Source: an uncultured Candidatus Saccharibacteria bacterium (lineage in GTDB: Bacteria > Patescibacteriota > Saccharimonadia > Saccharimonadales > JACDBH01). From it: DNA of 64,000 nucleotides. The DNA lies in assembly GCA_964431415.1 (NCBI GenBank), contig CAYSJS010000001.1, positions 1,740-65,739 on the forward strand. Reading direction: 5' to 3'. A program made the translations under genes and the position numbers. The notes beneath the pieces are model-generated. The model was not told the origin of the DNA, made no database searches, and saw only the letters and a list, made by a program, of their open reading frames with translations. The stretch's first letter is position 1; every line of letters starts with the position of its first letter. Positions 1,257 through 24,853 of the stretch are shown one piece after another.

Positions 1257-1496
1257 ATGGGAATGACGATGAAGGGTCTACTTGATCCATATGTTTGTGA
1301 TTATGAATTGTGCCCAAATTTTCAGATAGCATTAGAAGGAGGCATGACTGACGATGAAGCGGCTGGTATTTGTTGTTCGGCTATGAAGCGCATTATAGGG
1401 GGAGACCCTGAAAGATCAGTTACTGCCGCTATGAATGGTGTAGAATGTGGACTTTTTCTAGCTCAAGTAGAAAATAATCAGCAAAAAGCTGAATGA
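1257..1496 (+). CDS. Hypothetical small Cys-rich protein (79 aa)
   Basis: ORF between rpoC and rpsL on the operon strand. No family recognised. Confidence 0.4.
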   Translation: MGMTMKGLLDPYVCDYELCPNFQIALEGGMTDDEAAGICCSAMKRIIGGDPERSVTAAMNGVECGLFLAQVENNQQKAE

Positions 1497-2856: not shown

Positions 2857-3093
2857 ATGGAAGTTCCTCAAAGTGTAATGAGTTTCGTCCAAAGACGGGT
2901 TGAAGCCGCAACGGGTAGACGTGAGATCTACGAAGGTCGCCTGTCTGTTGACCAAATGCATGGCCTTTCAGTGACGCCTGCTCAAGTTTTAATACGTGGC
3001 GCCCTTTGTACTTTGGAGGCTATTGCACAAGGCACAGAAGAATTTCTGACCTCAGATGAAAAGCTCGATGACTTATTTTCACGAAGAAAGTAA
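2857..3093 (+). CDS. Hypothetical 78-aa protein
   Basis: The ORF starts 3 nt after the rpsG stop on the same strand. No family recognised. Confidence 0.45.
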   Translation: MEVPQSVMSFVQRRVEAATGRREIYEGRLSVDQMHGLSVTPAQVLIRGALCTLEAIAQGTEEFLTSDEKLDDLFSRRK

Positions 3094-3134: not shown

Positions 3135-3344
3135 ATGATAATGAGTGAAGGTACGCCACAAAATGGATTTTCGCTTCTTCCTGAACGCTTCGCTCCGGAA
3201 GACCTTTCTGCGATCAGGGAGCTTGCAAGTGAACTCGATAATCCATCGATGGAAATCGTCAGGGCAGCCCTGGGAAGATTTGAGGAGCATATACTCAGAA
3301 GAAGAAATGAAGGTGGAGAAGGTACACCGCCCCCTACTATGTAG
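3135..3344 (+). CDS. Hypothetical 69-aa protein, weakly ribbon-helix-helix-like
   Basis: The segment FSLLPERFAPEDLSAIRELASELDNPSMEIVRAALGRF has a strand-helix-helix pattern (impression only). The start could instead be the ATG at 3141. Confidence 0.4.
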   Translation: MIMSEGTPQNGFSLLPERFAPEDLSAIRELASELDNPSMEIVRAALGRFEEHILRRRNEGGEGTPPPTM

Positions 3345-3367: not shown

Positions 3368-3634
3368 ATGGCAGAAATTGGAGGAAGACTCAAAGACAAT
3401 GCGTTCACTAATGCTGGCTTTGCCGCTCTGGACGACATTGCTGCTGCAGCTCTAAGGAGAGGTCGTCAGGGCCGGGGCTGTGATATTGAACTGCAACTGG
3501 CTTCCACGGGCGATACGTATCCCCTCGACCCGAGCAGGATTTCAGCCATTCAAGACGCGGTTACCTCCACAACTCTGATGCCAGCTGACGCTGTTAGATG
3601 TGTCGCGATGATTGTTCATGGTGTCATAAAATAA
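3368..3634 (+). CDS. Hypothetical 88-aa protein
   Basis: Same-strand ORF. No family recognised. Confidence 0.4.
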   Translation: MAEIGGRLKDNAFTNAGFAALDDIAAAALRRGRQGRGCDIELQLASTGDTYPLDPSRISAIQDAVTSTTLMPADAVRCVAMIVHGVIK

Positions 3635-3716
3635 TAAAACATGCACGAGAATATCAAGAAGCGCTTTGAAGTGTGACGGCCGAGCATTACCTAATAAAAA
3701 AGTCAGGAGAAATACA

Positions 3717-4064
3717 GTGACACAGCAAGAAGCAGAAAATAGCAGAACCTCCCTTGTATTTGGCGTGTCCAGACAATCGGTAGAAGAGCAGTTTTTAAGC
3801 GGACAGGCCGAGAGTCCGTCGGCTATATATTTTGAGTTGTCGCGCCTCTACGTAGCACTTTCAGGATGTGTCGTAGTCGAGACCGACAATACGTTCTTGT
3901 CCGAAAGTGATTTGGCTACGGCCAAACGAGATGCAGAGGCGGCGCTTGCCTATAGTGTGGCGTATCGCAGTTTTTGCAGCGACACATTTCATAACGACAC
4001 CGTTCAACTTCAACTGCTTGCAGGCTATGTCGATAGCCTACTCAAGGCAAAAGACGAAAGCTAA
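3717..4064 (+). CDS. Hypothetical 115-aa acidic protein
   Basis: A GTG at 3717 is preceded by AGGAG (3704-3708). The longer ORF-track start at 3666 (TTG) lacks an RBS. Confidence 0.45.
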   Translation: MTQQEAENSRTSLVFGVSRQSVEEQFLSGQAESPSAIYFELSRLYVALSGCVVVETDNTFLSESDLATAKRDAEAALAYSVAYRSFCSDTFHNDTVQLQLLAGYVDSLLKAKDES

Positions 4065-6402: not shown

Positions 6403-6999
6403 ATGGCAGAACGTGAAATTGTACGTCTACCGGATGAAATAGAAAATCGCGCACTCACGATCTTGTGCGAAGGCGTGTCGAGCATTCAGGTGTCAATGTC
6501 AAGGCGGAGCATTGCAGAAGTATTTGCGAGTCCTGATTACGACGTAATGGTCGACGGAATTAAAAAGCTAGAGGAGCTTTACAGCATACTCGATCCGCCG
6601 GCTATTGTACTAAGACCGTCTCAAGCTGAAGGTGTGGATATAGATAATCTTCCTTCTCACGACCTAGTCGCCAATGTCGCGAGCGCTATAGCTCTATCAC
6701 AGACCGCGACCTATGATCAAAGAATGGAACTACTAGAAACTTGGGCGGGTATATCGTCAGACGGTCCTTATAGGACTATGCCCTCGCCAGAAGCGGCTTG
6801 GGTTGTTGCACAGGAACAACTTATTGACCAACGGGAATGGGCGACGCTCTCCAGGAATGAGGGCAGGATATTCGAAACAACTGCAATGCTTGAAGAGATC
6901 TACGCGGCCGGTCATCGCCCGAATATAGTAAAACACCTTGGCATACTTGCGAGCGGTGTAATCGGTACACTTGCTCGCGCCGTTTGGTATAGACGTTAA
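6403..6999 (+). CDS. Hypothetical 198-aa protein
   Basis: ORF directly after fusA. No family recognised. Confidence 0.5.
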   Translation: MAEREIVRLPDEIENRALTILCEGVSSIQVSMSRRSIAEVFASPDYDVMVDGIKKLEELYSILDPPAIVLRPSQAEGVDIDNLPSHDLVANVASAIALSQTATYDQRMELLETWAGISSDGPYRTMPSPEAAWVVAQEQLIDQREWATLSRNEGRIFETTAMLEEIYAAGHRPNIVKHLGILASGVIGTLARAVWYRR

Positions 7000-8281: not shown

Positions 8282-9502
8282 ATGGGTGTGGTAAAACGAA
8301 CTAAAGCACTACTGCTTGCAGCGATTATGGTAGTCGTGCCGCTGTTCGCTTCTGGTCACGCAGCCGCTGCAGGCTCGGCAAGCTTTAGTTTGAGTCCAAC
8401 CGGCGGAAGCTTTGTGAAGGGCAGCACGCTTACTGTTACGGTTAATGTATCCAGTTCAGACCAGATCAATACCGTTCAAGCCGACATAACATATGACGCA
8501 GCAAAGCTGCAGTATGCTTCGATTGACGGCTCAGGCAGCGCGTTTGACTTCCCACTGGCTGCATCTGGCGGTGGCGGTTCGGTGCAAATCGCACGTGGAG
8601 TTTCTGGTGGCGCAACAGTAAGCGGAACCAAGAAACTTGCTTCAGTTAACTTCACTGTTTTGGTGTCCGGTACTACTGCAACACTGAGTTTTGCTTCCAG
8701 CTCGGCAATCTTGTCTCCTGGCGGCAGCGGTACGACAAACGTATGGAACGGTAATACTACGGGAGGTTCATATACTTTGACAGCTCCTGTTGAAAGTACG
8801 CCTCCACCAGCTAGCGGTTCATCCGGATCTTCGGGTTCTGGTTCAAGCGGTGGAAACAAGAATAATACGCCAGCCCAGCCCTCTAAGCCGGCACAGCCTG
8901 CCGCCCCCGCACAACCTGCTTCTCCCGAGCAGCCTGTTGTAACCAGCGCCCCAGCTGCGAATACCAAGCATCTTGTGGCAATCAAAGTCGTGGACAAAAA
9001 TGACAAAACCAAAAAATCGCTGGATGTGCGCTTGAACGGGGTGACTGTTAAGACTGATGACAAAGGTATTGCTAGCTTTTCTGATGTGCCAACCGGAACC
9101 CACACGGTGACGGTATTTACCTCAAAGGATGTTTCGACGGATATGACCATAGAGGTAAAAGACGGCGACACTACTGCGGTTCAAAGCTATACATTCAAAC
9201 TACCTCAGTCATCGAGCAAAAAATGGATGTATCTAATACTTATCATCCCTGCAGCAATCCTTATTGTTGGGTTGATTCTGGTGGTACGGAGTAAACTCAA
9301 AAATAAGTTAAAAAATGTATATCAAGGAACGGCTCCGGCTGCGTCGGCAATAACCGGTGATTTTGATGCACGTGCAGCCGGTGTACATAAATCATTAGCT
9401 GAAGAGGGTCAACCAGTGGCCCCGCCTGCAACCGTAATCCGTCCAACTGTAACCAACGAGACAGCCAACGAAACCGAGCACGAAAAAGAAAACGGAGAAT
9501 AA
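8282..9502 (+). CDS. Membrane-anchored cohesin-domain protein
   Basis: Domain order: signal peptide, cohesin-like module, linker, beta-sandwich segment, one TM helix. The cohesin-like module reads SASFSLSPTGGSFVKGSTLTVTVNV...VQADITYDAAKLQY...GTKKLASVNFTV. The linker is rich in Pro, Ala and Ser (PAQPSKPAQPAAPAQPASPEQP). The TM helix is WMYLILIIPAAILIVGLILVV. Confidence 0.7.
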   Translation: MGVVKRTKALLLAAIMVVVPLFASGHAAAAGSASFSLSPTGGSFVKGSTLTVTVNVSSSDQINTVQADITYDAAKLQYASIDGSGSAFDFPLAASGGGGSVQIARGVSGGATVSGTKKLASVNFTVLVSGTTATLSFASSSAILSPGGSGTTNVWNGNTTGGSYTLTAPVESTPPPASGSSGSSGSGSSGGNKNNTPAQPSKPAQPAAPAQPASPEQPVVTSAPAANTKHLVAIKVVDKNDKTKKSLDVRLNGVTVKTDDKGIASFSDVPTGTHTVTVFTSKDVSTDMTIEVKDGDTTAVQSYTFKLPQSSSKKWMYLILIIPAAILIVGLILVVRSKLKNKLKNVYQGTAPAASAITGDFDARAAGVHKSLAEEGQPVAPPATVIRPTVTNETANETEHEKENGE

Positions 9503-16637: not shown

Positions 16638-17141
16638 ATGAGATCGAAACTAATGGTTACAGCAGCAGCTTTAACGGTAGGCGGTGGATTACTGACGGGT
16701 TGTAGTGAGCAACGTGCAAGCAGCAAGGAAGAGGCGAGTAACATGGCCTACGTAAGAGCGGTGGAAGACTTTCAAAAAGCAGACCATAAAGGAAGATATC
16801 GACAGCAGTTTCTAGATGATGATGCATATTTAGAACAAATAGGCGACGATGCTACGTGGTGGAAAAAAGGGAGCGACTGCTTGAGCGGTACAATCTACGA
16901 TACTGAGGCTGGCGCAGAACTCAGTACTGAAGACGATATTTTGATAGTGACACCAAATAGACACGGAGAAACGATACTGTACTTCACGGGAATCACACAT
17001 GCAGATACGGTATTAATCCCAGTTCCAGAAAAGGGTGTTGAAGAAATTTTAGAGAAGTTTAATTGCCCAGATGCATCTGACGTAAGAGAAGTAGCGTCGT
17101 ATGATCATCACCTGCTTGTCATAGATCCAAGAGACGAGTAA
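16638..17141 (+). CDS. Putative lipoprotein (167 aa)
   Basis: Signal peptide with lipobox LLTGC (MRSKLMVTAAALTVGGGLLTGCSEQ). Confidence 0.6.
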   Translation: MRSKLMVTAAALTVGGGLLTGCSEQRASSKEEASNMAYVRAVEDFQKADHKGRYRQQFLDDDAYLEQIGDDATWWKKGSDCLSGTIYDTEAGAELSTEDDILIVTPNRHGETILYFTGITHADTVLIPVPEKGVEEILEKFNCPDASDVREVASYDHHLLVIDPRDE

Positions 17142-17203: not shown

Positions 17204-18109
17204 ATGAATCATTTTGGCGCAAGCTTTTCGTTAATATATGCAAGGGAGATGCGGGTAGAACCAAAGGCCTGTCTTGAGGCGGCATTGGAAGACTTAGGAG
17301 TACGTAGGCTCAGATTAATGAGTTACTGGGACGTGCACGAAAAAACTCGCGGCAGCTATGACTTTACCGAATTAGACTGGCAAATTGACATGGCAGAACA
17401 GCATGGGGCAGAAGTATCGCTTTGTTTGGGCCTGCGTCAGCCGCGCTGGCCCGAAAGTCACTGGCCGGAGTGGGCGCTGCAGCTTCCAGATACAGAATGG
17501 CAAGCGGCTCTCTATAGCTTTATAGAAATAGTAGTAAAGAGATATAAAGACAGAAAGTGCATCATTAGCTATCAGCTTGAAAATGAGGCACTCCTAAAGT
17601 CATTTGGACTGCGGAGTAACTTCGACAGAAAAAGACTGGTACGAGAATTTAAACTCGTAAAGCAACTTGACCCATCTCGCCCGGTAATAATGACGACGTC
17701 CGATGCCTGGGGCATCCCGTGGCGCAGACCTTTGCCCGATATTGTCGGCTTTTCAATCTATCGCTACTTATTTGACGCAAAAAAGAACCGGTACGTAAAA
17801 AGCACAAGACGTGCAAGGTTTTATAGGTTCCGCGCTGTACTTATACGTATACTTCGTTTCAGAAAAACATATATCCATGAGCTGCAAGCCGAACCTTGGG
17901 GACCAAAAGCAACCATCGAATTGCCTGTAGATGAGCAGGCAAAAAGCATGAACCTTGCACATGTTCAGGAGGCCGTCCAGTACGCCCAAGATACAACCTT
18001 GCTTCCGGCAGATCTCTGGGGACTGGAATGGTGGTTCTGGCTGAAAACAAAACACGGCCAAACCGAAATATGGAATTACTTGAAACAAGTTTATAAAAGT
18101 ACACACTAA
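17204..18109 (+). CDS. Putative clan GH-A (TIM-barrel) glycoside hydrolase-like protein
   Basis: W..HE...G.YDF..LD.. opening and YQLENEA (a candidate acid/base NE motif) resemble GH5/GH42-type barrels. Assignment by motif only. Confidence 0.45.
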   Translation: MNHFGASFSLIYAREMRVEPKACLEAALEDLGVRRLRLMSYWDVHEKTRGSYDFTELDWQIDMAEQHGAEVSLCLGLRQPRWPESHWPEWALQLPDTEWQAALYSFIEIVVKRYKDRKCIISYQLENEALLKSFGLRSNFDRKRLVREFKLVKQLDPSRPVIMTTSDAWGIPWRRPLPDIVGFSIYRYLFDAKKNRYVKSTRRARFYRFRAVLIRILRFRKTYIHELQAEPWGPKATIELPVDEQAKSMNLAHVQEAVQYAQDTTLLPADLWGLEWWFWLKTKHGQTEIWNYLKQVYKSTH

Positions 18110-19655: not shown

Positions 19656-20027
19656 ATGAAAGATTTACATATGATTCCGCGCATTAGCGAAAAGGCTTAC
19701 GCACAGAGCCAGCGCGAAAATATTAAGACATATGTCTTTGAAGTACCCGCTTCTTCAAACAAACACACGGTTGCACGTGCTATTACCGCCCAGTATGACG
19801 TGGTTGTTACAAGCGTAAGAACCACAACCGCAAAGGGTAAAGTGAAACAAAGTTACCGCAAAGGCGGCCGCCCAATCACTGGTGTACGTTCTGATGTAAA
19901 GAAAGCCTATGTTACCCTGCGCGCCGGCGATAGCTTACCGCTCTTTGTTGAAGAAGCCAAAGAAGAGGAAAAGCAAGTAAAGGCTGCGGCTAAGGCTGCC
20001 AAGAAAGCAAAGAAGGAGACAAAATAA
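19656..20027 (+). CDS. rplW: 50S ribosomal protein L23 (Lys-rich C-terminal tail)
   Basis: L23-like core (KTYVFEVPASSNKHTVARAI). The ATG at 19656 follows AAAGGGAG. The ORF-track start at 19620 was trimmed. Confidence 0.9.
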   Translation: MKDLHMIPRISEKAYAQSQRENIKTYVFEVPASSNKHTVARAITAQYDVVVTSVRTTTAKGKVKQSYRKGGRPITGVRSDVKKAYVTLRAGDSLPLFVEEAKEEEKQVKAAAKAAKKAKKETK

Positions 20028-20881
20028 TGGCTATAAAAGCATATCGCCCTACGACTCCTGGCCAGCGCGGCATGACCACGCAGGATTTTGACACGATTAC
20101 CACAAAGAAGCCGCTTAAGAGCTTAGTAGTGGTAAAGAAGAAGATTTCCGGCCGCAACAACATGGGCCGCATTACGACCCGTCACCAAGGTGGCGGCGTG
20201 CGTCAGTTTTATCGTCTCGTTAACTTTAATCTTCCTGCGGGCACTAAGGCCGTAGTAGAAGAAATAGAATACGACCCAAACCGCTCCGCACGTATTGCAC
20301 GCATTAAAGATCAAGACAATAAGTATCACTATATTTTAGCTGGCAGCGGTATCGTACAGGGCCGCACGGTTGAAGCGGGCGAAGATGCTCCTGTAGAAGC
20401 CGGCAATCGTTTGCCACTCAAAAGCATCCCTGTTGGTAGCACCATTTATGCGATTGAGCTTCAGGTTGGCCGCGGCGCACAGCTTGTTCGCAGCGCCGGA
20501 AATAATGCACAGCTTATGGCAAAAGAGGGCGAGTACGCTCAGGTTCGCTTGCCATCAGGCGAAATCCGCAAAGTACTTGTTGACTGCATGGCTACACTTG
20601 GCACCGTCGGTAACGAACAGCACCAAAACATCAAGATTGGTAAAGCTGGACGCAACCGCAAGAAGGGCATCCGCCCATCTGTACGTGGCGTTGTAATGAA
20701 CGCCGTTGATCACCCACACGGTGGTGGTGACGGTGGTCGTCACGGTGTTGGTGGTGGTAAAAACCATGGTGCTGCTCCACGCACACCTTGGGGTATCAAG
20801 ACTCTTGGCTATAAGACTCGCAAGCGTAAGTCAACCAGCAAGATGATCGTAAAGAGCCGACATGCGGCGAAGAGGAAATAA
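20027..20881 (+). CDS. rplB: 50S ribosomal protein L2
   Basis: GRNNMGRITTRHQGGG and HPHGGGDG motifs. Confidence 0.97.
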   Translation: MAIKAYRPTTPGQRGMTTQDFDTITTKKPLKSLVVVKKKISGRNNMGRITTRHQGGGVRQFYRLVNFNLPAGTKAVVEEIEYDPNRSARIARIKDQDNKYHYILAGSGIVQGRTVEAGEDAPVEAGNRLPLKSIPVGSTIYAIELQVGRGAQLVRSAGNNAQLMAKEGEYAQVRLPSGEIRKVLVDCMATLGTVGNEQHQNIKIGKAGRNRKKGIRPSVRGVVMNAVDHPHGGGDGGRHGVGGGKNHGAAPRTPWGIKTLGYKTRKRKSTSKMIVKSRHAAKRK

Positions 20882-20883
20882 TC

Positions 20884-21132
20884 ATGAGCACTTTTGAACA
20901 AACACCAGACAGTTGGAATGCAGGATTTGAAACTGCTCAATTATTTCCATCTACACCAACAAGTTTTGATCCTCAGCGCAGGTTATTTGCTGCCGCTTGT
21001 GAGGCTGCTCAATGCGGTGTCTCTGGCGTTCCTAACGGCGATAGTCTACTTACTGATCAAGAATTTATTGATGGATTCAGAACAGGTCTCATGCATACGA
21101 CCATAGCAGTAGAAGGAGAAGGAAATGTCTAG
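20884..21132 (+). CDS. Orphan 82-aa acidic protein inserted between rplB and rpsS
   Basis: The ATG is 2 nt after the rplB stop. Its 3' end overlaps the rpsS start by 8 nt and contains the rpsS RBS (GAAGGAGAAGG). No family recognised. Confidence 0.5.
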
Positions 21133-21394
21133 ATCATTAAAGAAAGGTCCATTTATCGACCCAAAGCTTGCAAAGAAAATTGCAGCTTTGGGCGCAGAAG
21201 ACCGCACAATCATCAAAACGTGGGCACGCAGCAGTGTGATTAGCCCTGACTTTGTCGGTCGTACACTTGCTATACATAACGGCAAAGTACATGTGCCGGT
21301 ATTCATTACCGAAAACATGGTTGGCCACAAACTTGGTGAATTTAGCCCAACACGTAAATTCCGCTCTCATGGCGGTAAGATGGCGAAAGGTTAA
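21125..21394 (+). CDS. rpsS: 30S ribosomal protein S19
   Basis: [12 protein letters not shown]..., [11 protein letters not shown]. Confidence 0.97.
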
Positions 21395-23695: not shown

Positions 23696-24039
23696 TGAAT
23701 ACTCAAACCAAGAAACAAGCATTCAAGATTCGCCTTAAGGTCGGAGATACTGTTATTGTGCGAAGCGGTAAATACAAGGGTAAGACGGGTAAGATAACCG
23801 CTACTCATCCATTTGAAAACAAAGTTACCGTTGAAGGCATTAATATTGTCAAAAAGCATGTTAAGCCTAACCGCACACATCCCCAGGGCGACATTGTTGA
23901 AATTACCAAGCCTATTTGGGTAAGCAAGGTTGGGATCGTAGAGCCAACCAGCAAGAAAGCAAGCAAGATTGAGCACAAAGTTGACGCTAAAGGTGTAAAA
24001 ACCCGTGTATTCAAGCGCACCGGCAAGGAGATAAAGTAA
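23695..24039 (+). CDS. rplX: 50S ribosomal protein L24
   Basis: KVGDTVIVRSGKYKGKTGKI (KOW motif), synteny. Confidence 0.95.
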   Translation: MNTQTKKQAFKIRLKVGDTVIVRSGKYKGKTGKITATHPFENKVTVEGINIVKKHVKPNRTHPQGDIVEITKPIWVSKVGIVEPTSKKASKIEHKVDAKGVKTRVFKRTGKEIK

Positions 24040-24275
24040 TGGGTAGATTTGAAGTTCAATTGCAACCAGGTGAAGCTTGGGTAAGTGGCGGTTTAAGATA
24101 TGCCGATGGATATATAGGAGCTATGGATAGTAATGACCTAGATACTTTATACGTGCAAAGACGTGCTGCTGAAGAAAGACTAAGGGGTGAGCAGCCCAAC
24201 AATCCGGCTTTGCCGGATGATGGCGCGATGAGCGGGGATATTTCCCGCTCATGGGCCGATAAGGAGATCAAGTAA
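24039..24275 (+). CDS. Orphan 78-aa acidic protein inserted between rplX and rplE
   Basis: Both ends are TAATG overlaps: rplX stop with its own ATG at 24037-24041, and its own stop with the rplE ATG at 24273-24277. No family recognised. Confidence 0.55.
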   Translation: MGRFEVQLQPGEAWVSGGLRYADGYIGAMDSNDLDTLYVQRRAAEERLRGEQPNNPALPDDGAMSGDISRSWADKEIK

Positions 24276-24853
24276 TGGCCACTAAAACTACTACCGTTGC
24301 AACCGGCGCACGCTTAAAGAGTCTGTACAACGACAAATACGCCGCCGAACTCCTTAAGGAGCTTGAGCTTGCAAACGTACACCAGGTTCCTAAACTTCAG
24401 AAGATCACCATCAATGTTGGTCTTGGACGCGCAAAAGATGACAAAAAGTTGATTGAAGTGGCCGCAAATACACTCACTAAGATTACTGGCCAGCATCCTG
24501 TTGAAACCGTCGCCAAGCAGTCTATCGCAAGCTTTAAGCTCCGTGAAGGCAACAAAATTGGCCTTAAAGTTACTCTCCGCGGCGACCGCATGTACGAATT
24601 CATGGACAGACTTGTAAACATCGTACTGCCACGGCTTCGCGACTTCCACGGTGTCAGCGCAAAAGCGTTCGACCGCCAGGGCAACTACGCGCTTGGCCTA
24701 AGCGAACAGTCAGTTTTTCCTGAGCTTACCTTTGAAGAAACCACCACTCCACACGGATTGCAGGTACTATTCACAATTAAGTCAGAAGAACCAGCACATG
24801 CCAGGGCACTGCTCACAAAGTTTGGCATGCCATTTGAAAAGGAGAATAAATAA
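24275..24853 (+). CDS. rplE: 50S ribosomal protein L5
   Basis: [25 protein letters not shown]... Confidence 0.97.

Follow-up and report, generated by a model that had tools for sequence, protein, structure and literature searches.

The stretch analysed here, called the window throughout, is a 64,000-nucleotide segment of a contig from an uncultured Candidatus Saccharibacteria bacterium, and its + strand carries a complete string of S10/spc ribosomal-protein genes (rplC, rplD, rplW, rplB, rpsS, rplV, rpsC and so on). Between rplB and rpsS lies an additional open reading frame (ORF) of 82 amino acids, ORF82, which occupies positions 20884 to 21132 of the + strand, begins with ATG, ends with a TAG stop at 21130-21132 and is a lineage-restricted orphan protein gene. 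Its upstream partner in the list of ORFs is rplB (uL2; + strand, 20027-20881), with Pfam matches to Ribosomal_L2_N (E 8e-23) and L2_C (E 7e-51), and its downstream partner is rpsS (uS19; + strand, 21125-21394), which has its ATG at 21125 and matches Ribosomal_S19 (E 5e-34). The last codons of rplB are AAG AGG AAA TAA, with the stop at 20879-20881, and they contain a putative Shine-Dalgarno sequence for the next cistron, AAGAGGAAA (+ strand, 20870-20878), in which GAGG stands 8 nucleotides (nt) before the ATG of ORF82. From this spacing, and from a comparison of the junction at 80 loci, AAGAGGAAA probably acts as the ribosome-binding site of ORF82. Two nucleotides (TC) separate the rplB stop, ending at 20881, from the ORF82 start at 20884. 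At its other end ORF82 finishes with ...AVEGEGNV, and its codons 77-81 (E-G-E-G-N) encode GAAGGAGAAGGAA (+ strand, 21112-21124), the putative Shine-Dalgarno sequence of rpsS, directly before the rpsS ATG. The GAAGGAG within it (21112-21118) is kept in the two genomes that carry relatives of ORF82, L009 and L010, and the bases after the motif vary. The two frames then overlap by 8 nt, ATGTCTAG (+ strand, 21125-21132), the ORF82 stop being made from rpsS codons 2-3, and as far as sequence can tell this overlap is a termination-reinitiation junction. ORF82 thus appears to be a coupled cistron on both sides, with a Shine-Dalgarno sequence in the upstream gene, a 2-nt spacer and an 8-nt overlap. 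An earlier description made from the letters of the window (the sequence-only reading) had already pointed to the 2-nt start, the 8-nt overlap and the rpsS Shine-Dalgarno sequence encoded in the last codons of ORF82, and all of these were confirmed. The identical protein recurs in this context on all of 22 contigs, which come from several independent assemblies, and ORF82 is therefore not an assembly artefact. In the minimum-free-energy fold of positions 20870-20952 the ribosome-binding region of ORF82 (GAGGAAAUAAU) pairs with AUUAUUUCC, about 60 nt downstream and inside ORF82, and the region of this pairing as a whole folds no better than shuffled sequences.

ORF82 is a real protein-coding sequence under moderate constraint. 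Its relatives come from a search of 5.8 billion proteins, which gave three clusters, the window protein and two relatives. The latter, from L009 and L010, share 80% and 77% amino acid identity with it, are both encoded between rplB and rpsS, and are exactly 82 codons long (246 nt compared) with no indel and no stop. Between the window and these genomes uL2 is 97-99% and uS19 98% identical. The synonymous divergence (dS) of ORF82, 0.38, equals that of its flanks (0.29-0.39 for rplB and rpsS), its nonsynonymous divergence (dN) is 0.12-0.13 vs 0.006-0.027 in the flanks, and dN/dS (omega) is 0.31-0.34 on the long branch. Over the three taxa 56 synonymous sites carry 20 changes and 190 nonsynonymous sites carry 27 (omega 0.40), with a synonymous excess in the three-branch assignment (binomial p=0.002). 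Amino-acid evolution is 10-20 times faster than in uL2, and 58 of the 82 residues are invariant across the three lineages, including the blocks RLFAAACE and FIDGFRTGL. GC content at the first, second and third codon positions (GC1, GC2 and GC3) is 0.56, 0.51 and 0.23, a strong coding periodicity. The sequence-only reading had made its case depend on conservation of the frame in related genomes, and the frame is indeed conserved in L009 and L010 with dN/dS below 1; as to presence of the segment in relatives, on which it also depended, the outcome was divided, the segment being found in L009 and L010 and absent from a third relative, L011. The predicted product has an isoelectric point (pI) of 4.1, a net charge of -8 and three helices. 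The AlphaFold-type prediction that had been proposed as a check for a folded domain did not yield one: from the three-sequence alignment AlphaFold2 gave three helices at low confidence, with a predicted local distance difference test score (pLDDT) of 41.7. A second frame, +1 relative to ORF82, contains a TTG-initiated ORF of 70 codons at 20894-21106 that is open in all three lineages (70, 72 and 70 amino acids). Since the substitutions show their synonymous bias in frame 0, this ORF was discarded as a coding candidate, and it is probably a by-product of AT-rich third positions.

ORF82 is an orphan, as the sequence-only reading had supposed, in that profile, sequence, phage and plasmid searches recovered only its own cluster. 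Pfam gave no family for it, the best match being to an unrelated one at E 0.15, NCBIfam, PHROGs and PADLOC profiles gave no match, and the best hit among PDB sequences was again unrelated (E 0.18); ORF82 fits no known ribosomal or ribosome-associated family among Pfam, NCBIfam and the PDB chains tested. When 1.84 billion cluster representatives were searched exhaustively with a HMMER profile, only ORF82's own cluster was genuine. Three long repeat proteins that also scored in that search (P0004-P0006) were rejected for their repeat-inflated scores, P0004 and P0005 matching only a short SGVPVGDxL-like motif nine times over. A tblastn search with ORF82 found nothing beyond its own clade, and no relative was present in viral contigs, phage records or plasmid records, so that, together with the PHROGs and PADLOC results, ORF82 does not classify as a phage, plasmid or defence gene. 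Within the 64-kb window blastn, tblastn and tblastx turned up neither a paralogue of ORF82 nor a sequence from which it could have come; it occurs once, and neither repeats nor a target duplication accompany it. An RNA element is unlikely here, because a scan of the region against Rfam gave no match at E up to 1 and single-sequence folding gave no signal (z-score -0.41). In the literature searched we found no description of ORFs at the rplB-rpsS junction in Saccharibacteria or Patescibacteria, which is not proof of novelty.

The sequence-only reading also held that the segment is richer in AT than its neighbours and took this to suggest a different origin. The compositional difference is mild in total GC content (0.44 vs 0.52 in rplB and 0.46 in rpsS) and becomes strong at third codon positions, the comparison with neighbours that had been proposed: GC3 is 0.23 in ORF82 vs 0.38-0.56 in the ribosomal genes (host ribosomal-gene value 0.46), and is lower than in every one of 1059 82-codon segments (mean 0.48, minimum 0.28) drawn from 51 long ORFs of the window. 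Both relatives of ORF82 are equally low in GC3. Low GC3 does not show a foreign source, because dS equals that of the flanks, the flanks are closest to those of L011, and low GC3 is a feature of the whole class of inserts described below; nor was a donor match found. Import by recombination through the conserved flanks was considered and rejected: no foreign tract was detected, and L011, the nearest relative, is also the best match to the final 150 nt of rplB and the opening 60 nt of rpsS. A serine codon of rpsS is TCT in the window vs AGT in L011-L014, and TCT has no overall association with inserts.

The wider setting of ORF82 was examined in a scan for uL2 that took one genome per GTDB species and gave 80 genomes, all of Saccharibacteria (TM7, Patescibacteria), with 66-90% uL2 identity. 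The window species itself is outside this set, its closest member being L011 (uL2 90%). Counts for the space between rplB and rpsS, which we call the slot, rest on the 78 species genomes that have both genes, and a gap of at least 90 nt was taken as an insert. Such gaps, of 100-511 nt, are present in 23 of the 78 genomes (about 30%), vs 0-9 at each of the other junctions downstream of rplC, and in all 23 the gap is filled by one ORF of 31-172 amino acids. The claim that rplB-rpsS adjacency is nearly universal therefore fails in this phylum, and, because 23 of 78 genomes have an ORF-filled insert, ORF82 is not a singular event: it is one occupant of a recurrent slot.

The slot ORFs of other species are arranged much as ORF82 is. 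In most of the 23 loci the ORF starts within about 10 nt past the rplB stop. In L028, L048, L057 and L062 the longest ORF begins 4-20 nt upstream of that stop, and an in-frame ATG follows the stop by a few nucleotides in L028, L048 and L057. At the 3' end the slot ORFs overlap rpsS by ATGA (4 nt) or ATGAGTAG (8 nt), or finish 1-3 nt short of it, and all those of other species have a GGAG-like motif whose distance to the rpsS ATG downstream is 6-10 nt. Where there is no insert, the AAGAGGAAATAA end of rplB is found 1-3 nt (plus the stop) before the rpsS ATG; where there is one, the motif precedes the slot ORF instead. Mononucleotide shuffling leaves a fully open frame in about 3% of such gaps, so that 0.69 would be expected among 24, and 22 were observed, the two remaining slot ORFs ending 1-3 nt before rpsS. 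The argument that an open, coupled spacer of this size is unlikely to arise by chance is borne out by these figures and by the absence of indels in two diverged lineages. All 24 slot ORFs resemble ribosomal genes in GC1 and GC2, and every one is lower in GC3 than the ribosomal genes of its own host (mean 0.33 vs 0.51; Wilcoxon p=5e-7), although slot-ORF GC3 partly tracks that of the host. Of the 25 slot ORFs listed, the window's and 24 from other loci, 24 are net acidic. On a neighbour-joining tree of seven ribosomal proteins with 78 leaves the insert is present on 24, and the pattern is very patchy: it needs at least 18 changes of state, or 19 if only gains are allowed, or 30 if only losses are.

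Are these occupants one family? Neither tblastn nor blastp between species detected similarity among slot ORFs. Pairwise Smith-Waterman scores are weakly above those of shuffles (mean z 4.6; 8 pairs at 40 or more vs 2 expected), and in a leave-one-out test with hidden Markov models (HMMs) 3 of 22 slot sequences reached p<0.05, ORF82 giving p=0.38. A subgroup from L015, L030, L034, L042 and L046, which belong to three separate clades, shares an N-terminal MLxFxxxPP motif and a G-x-x-x-G-x-x-L core. ORF82 begins MSTFEQTPD, a loose resemblance, and is not assigned to this group by profile comparison, hhalign giving a probability of 1.1% for the ORF82 family against it. Phenylalanine at position 4 occurs in 7 of 21 slot sequences, with a nominal p=2e-5 for a motif chosen after viewing the data, and within the ORF82 family it is found in the window and is replaced by isoleucine in L009 and L010. 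A 'G-aromatic' motif is enriched about two- to threefold in slot ORFs and, having been defined post hoc, is a lead only. When the databases were searched with the profile of the MLxFxxxPP subgroup, its own members and two relatives of the L046 ORF were recovered, both of these in the slot. The resulting L046 family (L046, L091 and L092) has dN/dS of 0.09-0.12 and a dN about 10 times that of uS19, and its AlphaFold2 model, an N-terminal hairpin followed by a helical bundle, is moderately confident (pLDDT 72.5, predicted template modelling score 0.64), with no match among PDB folds at E up to 0.001. Slot ORFs can thus be real folded proteins, since this family is constrained and has a moderately confident model, and given their rates any common ancestry would have been erased at the distances sampled. 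By these sequence comparisons a single ancient slot family is not shown, the occupants not being detectably homologous. In the sister genomes L060 and L084 a homologous acidic ORF (103 and 108 amino acids; Smith-Waterman score 183) stands at the L23-L2 (rplW-rplB) junction, and their rplB-rpsS slot ORFs (129 and 96 amino acids) have no detected similarity, the pair falling outside the 45 best-scoring pairs.

The behaviour of the slot extends to ribosomal junctions in general. Wherever a ribosomal junction in the fetched loci has a gap of 90 nt or more, a single ORF that abuts or overlaps both neighbours covers 86-100% of it, and at junctions other than rplB-rpsS the frame is fully open in 34 of 41 such gaps vs 6.8 expected. 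The inserted ORFs differ in charge according to their length. Those of at least 55 amino acids (n=36) have a net charge of -7.1 per 100 residues and are negative in 36 of 36 cases, and those shorter than 55 (n=29) have +6.1 per 100, with 24 positive; the corresponding figures are +6.7 for peptides from random sequence and +0.4 for 51 ordinary proteins of the window, 27 of them negative. ORF82 belongs with the long, acidic junction ORFs, as it fills its gap with offsets of +2 and +8, has 82 amino acids and a charge of -8, and shows a GC3 of 0.23 vs 0.46. Many of the short inserts are copies of repeated elements, and their peptides are random-like and basic. Openness and coupling look like a survival condition for any insert in these operons. 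Structured RNA repeats inserted at these junctions are likewise open and coupled without exception, so that an open frame by itself says little for a functional protein; what marks the long ORFs, ORF82 included, as selected proteins is that they are uniformly acidic and have dN/dS below 1.

The clearest of the repeats, R1, is about 110-124 nt long and forms two hairpins, with compensatory changes in 11 of 24 predicted pairs. Copies were located at L045:9620-9743, L056:9412-9538 and 6512-6626, L057:3880-4006 and 8991-9117, L070:7766-7886 and L084:5351-5477, with further covariance-model matches at L030:49-159, L063:4683-4802 and L034:7339-7435. The ribosomal-gene junction that R1 occupies varies between genomes. 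In every case the reading frame runs through the repeat and gives a peptide of about 37 residues ('REKSSQS..LRDEKNRRFV'), and an AAGGAG motif lies near the 3' end of the repeat, which has no match in Rfam; R1 resembles a mobile structured element that has adapted to junctions within operons. Two other short repeat families were noted, one with two copies in L084, at the L22-S3 and S17-L14 junctions ('ITKHQSPSNNQMTND..LVIGTCGLVIPTEGRL'), and another, AT-rich, at several junctions in L021, L022 and L051; the copies of both are all open and end in Shine-Dalgarno-coding 'EGG' or 'EGR' residues. In the window itself ORF78 (24039-24275), between rplX and rplE with a 1-nt overlap on each side, encodes 78 amino acids with a net charge of -5 and no Pfam match. 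Its 3' 109 nt (24172-24280) are a copy of the two-hairpin repeat, scoring 70.9 bits with a model whose training alignment included this copy, and ORF78 thus seems to join a unique 5' portion to this repeat. Rickettsia palindromic elements and other in-frame repeats that resemble miniature inverted-repeat transposable elements have been reviewed (PMC10969869). The short junction inserts, including the 3' half of ORF78, are like them in being repeated, hairpin-forming and read through in frame, and ORF82 differs from them in being single-copy, acidic and under purifying selection, in giving no hairpin signal and in not matching the repeat model. ORF82 accordingly does not classify as an R1 or similar element, the R1 covariance model finding no copy in 20884-21132, the sequence occurring once in the window and the folding z-score being -0.41.

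Taken together, we consider it somewhat probable, at about 55%, that ORF82 is a genuine gene restricted to the level of a genus, which encodes a small, acidic, mostly helical protein and is translated in relay between rplB and rpsS. Ribosomes that finish rplB would restart 2 nt downstream at the ORF82 ATG by way of the AAGAGGA motif in the last rplB codons, a motif that in insert-free relatives would serve rpsS directly. The last codons of ORF82 would supply a new GAAGGAG motif for rpsS, and termination on the TAG formed from rpsS codons 2-3 would hand the ribosome on to that gene. If translation does proceed by such a relay, the protein may be made in roughly the amounts of a ribosomal protein. 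Coupling could also be what forces every insert to stay open, since an insert that was not translated, or not coupled, would break the link to rpsS and the genes after it and so be selected against. Rather than being inert, the acidic product may work at or close to the ribosomal proteins encoded next to it, which are very basic, escorting them or preventing their aggregation; this is the weakest step, suggested by charge and gene position only.

Several observations weigh against this reading. The nearest insert-free relative, L011, with an L2 90% identical, lives without ORF82, and the window's clade (L011, L012 and L013) is insert-free; with a presence as patchy as the tree requires (at least 18 changes), the slot product would seem to be dispensable. 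No co-variation with uL2 or uS19 was seen, and the 3' end of rplB is alike with and without an insert. Occupants that are non-homologous and range from 31 to 172 amino acids fit poorly with one specific partner. Between the two closest ORF82 lineages dN/dS is 0.88, a value drawn from 20 changes only (5 synonymous, 15 nonsynonymous), so that constraint may be weak or relaxed. The AlphaFold2 model of ORF82 is poor (pLDDT 41.7), and the escort function is argued from charge (pI 4.1) and position only.

Three of the rival explanations differ mainly on the origin of ORF82 and on whether its protein matters. ORF82 could be a translated spacer with no protein function, landed DNA that survives only because, being open and coupled, it leaves rpsS and the genes beyond it translated, its peptide being tolerated, and kept acidic and soluble because basic or hydrophobic peptides would be harmful when as abundant as ribosomal proteins. 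On such a view one would expect each insert of 90 nt or more, at whatever ribosomal junction, to be filled by one ORF, and this is so even for structured RNA repeats whose peptides have a random-like charge; the speed of ORF82 relative to uL2, its dN/dS of 0.88 on the short branch, its poor model, its absence from the nearest insert-free relative and the patchy distribution all agree with it. We nevertheless hold it to be unlikely. Avoidance of stops removes a few percent of nonsynonymous changes and cannot give an omega of 0.3-0.4 (p=0.002), 58 of 82 residues are invariant in three lineages, the L046 family has an omega of about 0.1 and a foldable model, and a pure toxicity filter would not obviously leave 36 of 36 long inserts acidic yet the short ones basic. 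The idea that the segment is no gene at all, but a cis-regulatory or structured RNA spacer or an assembly artefact, draws on the structured RNA repeats at other junctions of these operons. It is contradicted by the data and extremely improbable, since Rfam (E up to 1), folding (z -0.41) and the repeat covariance model found nothing in the segment, substitutions are codon-periodic in frame 0, and the identical protein recurs on 22 contigs of independent assemblies.

It is also conceivable that the junction is a hotspot for exchangeable accessory cassettes, small fast-evolving genes that pass between Saccharibacteria by gain, replacement and loss and are carried along by the strongest operon of the cell, and that ORF82 is one allele. 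Such a gene might, for example, encode an acidic inhibitor or an immunity protein directed at a basic toxin that attacks ribosomes or RNA. The tree asks for 19 events under gains only vs 30 under losses only, L060 and L084 share their L23-L2 ORF (score 183) yet have slot occupants with no detected similarity, the MLxFxxxPP group is spread over three clades, mobile structured repeats colonise the same ribosomal junctions, and ORFans or horizontally acquired genes are classically small, fast-evolving and low in GC3, as ORF82 is. Yet ORF82 is single-copy and lacks repeats or a target duplication, there is no sign of recent import or of a recombination tract (dS equals the flanks, and these are closest to the nearest relative), searches of phage, plasmid, viral-contig, PHROG and PADLOC collections gave no match, and no cognate toxin is known, the immunity idea being one of analogy only. 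We regard this explanation as distinctly improbable. A single ancient Saccharibacteria gene, diverged beyond recognition and lost many times, of which ORF82 would be the local descendant rather than an insertion, would account for the shared position, coupling design, acidity and low GC3 of the occupants; with a dN about 10 times that of uS19 and a rate 10-20 times that of uL2, similarity would be erased at the distances sampled, and the weak pairwise excess (mean z 4.6; 8 pairs vs 2 expected), the phenylalanine at position 4 (7 of 21; nominal p=2e-5) and the MSTFEQTPD start of ORF82 may be its traces. This too is doubtful: hhalign gives 1.1% for the ORF82 family against the MLxFxxxPP group, the leave-one-out p is 0.38 for ORF82 and below 0.05 for 3 of 22 sequences, about 30 independent losses would be required of genes whose products range from 31 to 172 amino acids, and the position-4 residue, isoleucine in L009 and L010, is not conserved within the ORF82 family and belongs to motifs picked after viewing the data. 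Lastly, the junction might be a maintained expression slot in which unrelated small acidic proteins are repeatedly born or swapped in and are made at ribosomal stoichiometry by relay translation, to act on the ribosome or its basic proteins either as escorts or by shielding them from attacks aimed at the ribosome. ORF82 would then be one allele of an undescribed class of ribosome accessory factors defined by position and not by sequence, a proposal that we advance with low confidence.

Comparison with known systems helps to place the favoured interpretation, in which ORF82 is a genuine relay-translated gene. Translationally coupled overlapping cistrons (ATGA or TAATG, with termination-reinitiation) occur in the trp and ribosomal-protein operons. 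As in these, each putative Shine-Dalgarno sequence lies in the last codons of the previous cistron, the ORF82 stop overlaps the rpsS start, and the start spacing is 2 nt; ORF82 differs in being a non-conserved newcomer that, as its coupling is read from sequence, would have taken the old ribosome-binding site of rpsS and re-created one. Daubin and Ochman are said in 2004 to have described bacterial ORFans as short, A+T-rich and fast-evolving. ORF82 is like them in having 82 amino acids, a GC3 far below that of the genome, a rate 10-20 times that of its neighbours and no domain match, and in being limited to three near-species clusters among some 15 billion proteins. In contrast to ORFans, it is located inside the most conserved operon of the cell and not in an island, is coupled on both sides, has a synonymous divergence equal to that of its flanks and forms part of a position-specific, uniformly acidic class. 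Archaeal S10/spc clusters hold extra non-ribosomal ORFs, such as the gene for the RNase P protein subunit and unnamed ORFs in Methanococcus. There too non-ribosomal frames are embedded and co-transcribed in the S10/spc string, but those frames belong to conserved families, lie at other junctions and have roles that are known or conserved, whereas the occupant of the rplB-rpsS slot varies by species. Dedicated acidic partners of basic proteins include the eukaryotic ribosomal-protein chaperones Yar1, Tsr2 and Acl4, as well as barstar and the colicin E3 immunity protein. ORF82 may be compared with them in being small, strongly acidic and expected to be co-produced with very basic RNA-binding proteins; unlike them, it has no sequence or fold similarity that was found, and the slot occupants are mutually non-homologous, so that the analogy is a lead and not a classification.

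Other ribosomal loci of the same genome are interrupted as well. In the str operon there are ORFs at window positions 1257-1496, 2177-2377, 2857-3093, 3135-3344, 3368-3634 and 3666-4064, one between rpoC and rpsL, one at the rpsL-rpsG junction (66 amino acids, acidic, starting 1 nt past the rpsL stop and overlapping the rpsG ATG) and four small ones between rpsG and fusA. All six are net acidic, with GC3 of 0.27-0.47, and no similarity was detected among them or to ORF82. The rpsJ-rplC interval contains an ORF of 167 amino acids with a lipoprotein-like N-terminus (..LLTGC) at 16638-17141 and one of 301 amino acids with a weak glycoside-hydrolase match at 17204-18109, and in each of the 56 Saccharibacteria loci where both genes are present S10 and L3 lie more than 1 kb apart (median gap 1408 nt). 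Three of the contigs surveyed (L033, L045 and L082) are titled as metagenome-assembled genomes of Burkholderiaceae, Nevskiaceae and Nomurabacteria and have Saccharibacteria-like ribosomal operons (uL2 68-73% to the window); these titles are probably binning or labelling errors.

ORF82 by itself is a modest curiosity, and the main new results are the recurrent slot, the rule that inserts are always predicted to be translated and the rule that the long ones are all acidic. Ribosomal-protein operons are taken to be the most rigid gene strings of bacteria and serve as markers for placing uncultured lineages, and the slot is a warning for marker-gene pipelines that assume rplB and rpsS to be contiguous. 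In one of the most genome-reduced phyla these operons would appear to tolerate, or even recruit, lineage-specific mini-genes at a preferred junction. Inserts that seem to be fully translated and coupled at both ends offer a natural experiment on the importance of translational coupling, and the slot could serve as a model of gene birth under forced high expression. That the long inserts are all acidic speaks either for a function involving the basic ribosomal proteins or for a strong toxicity filter acting on new peptides that are highly expressed.

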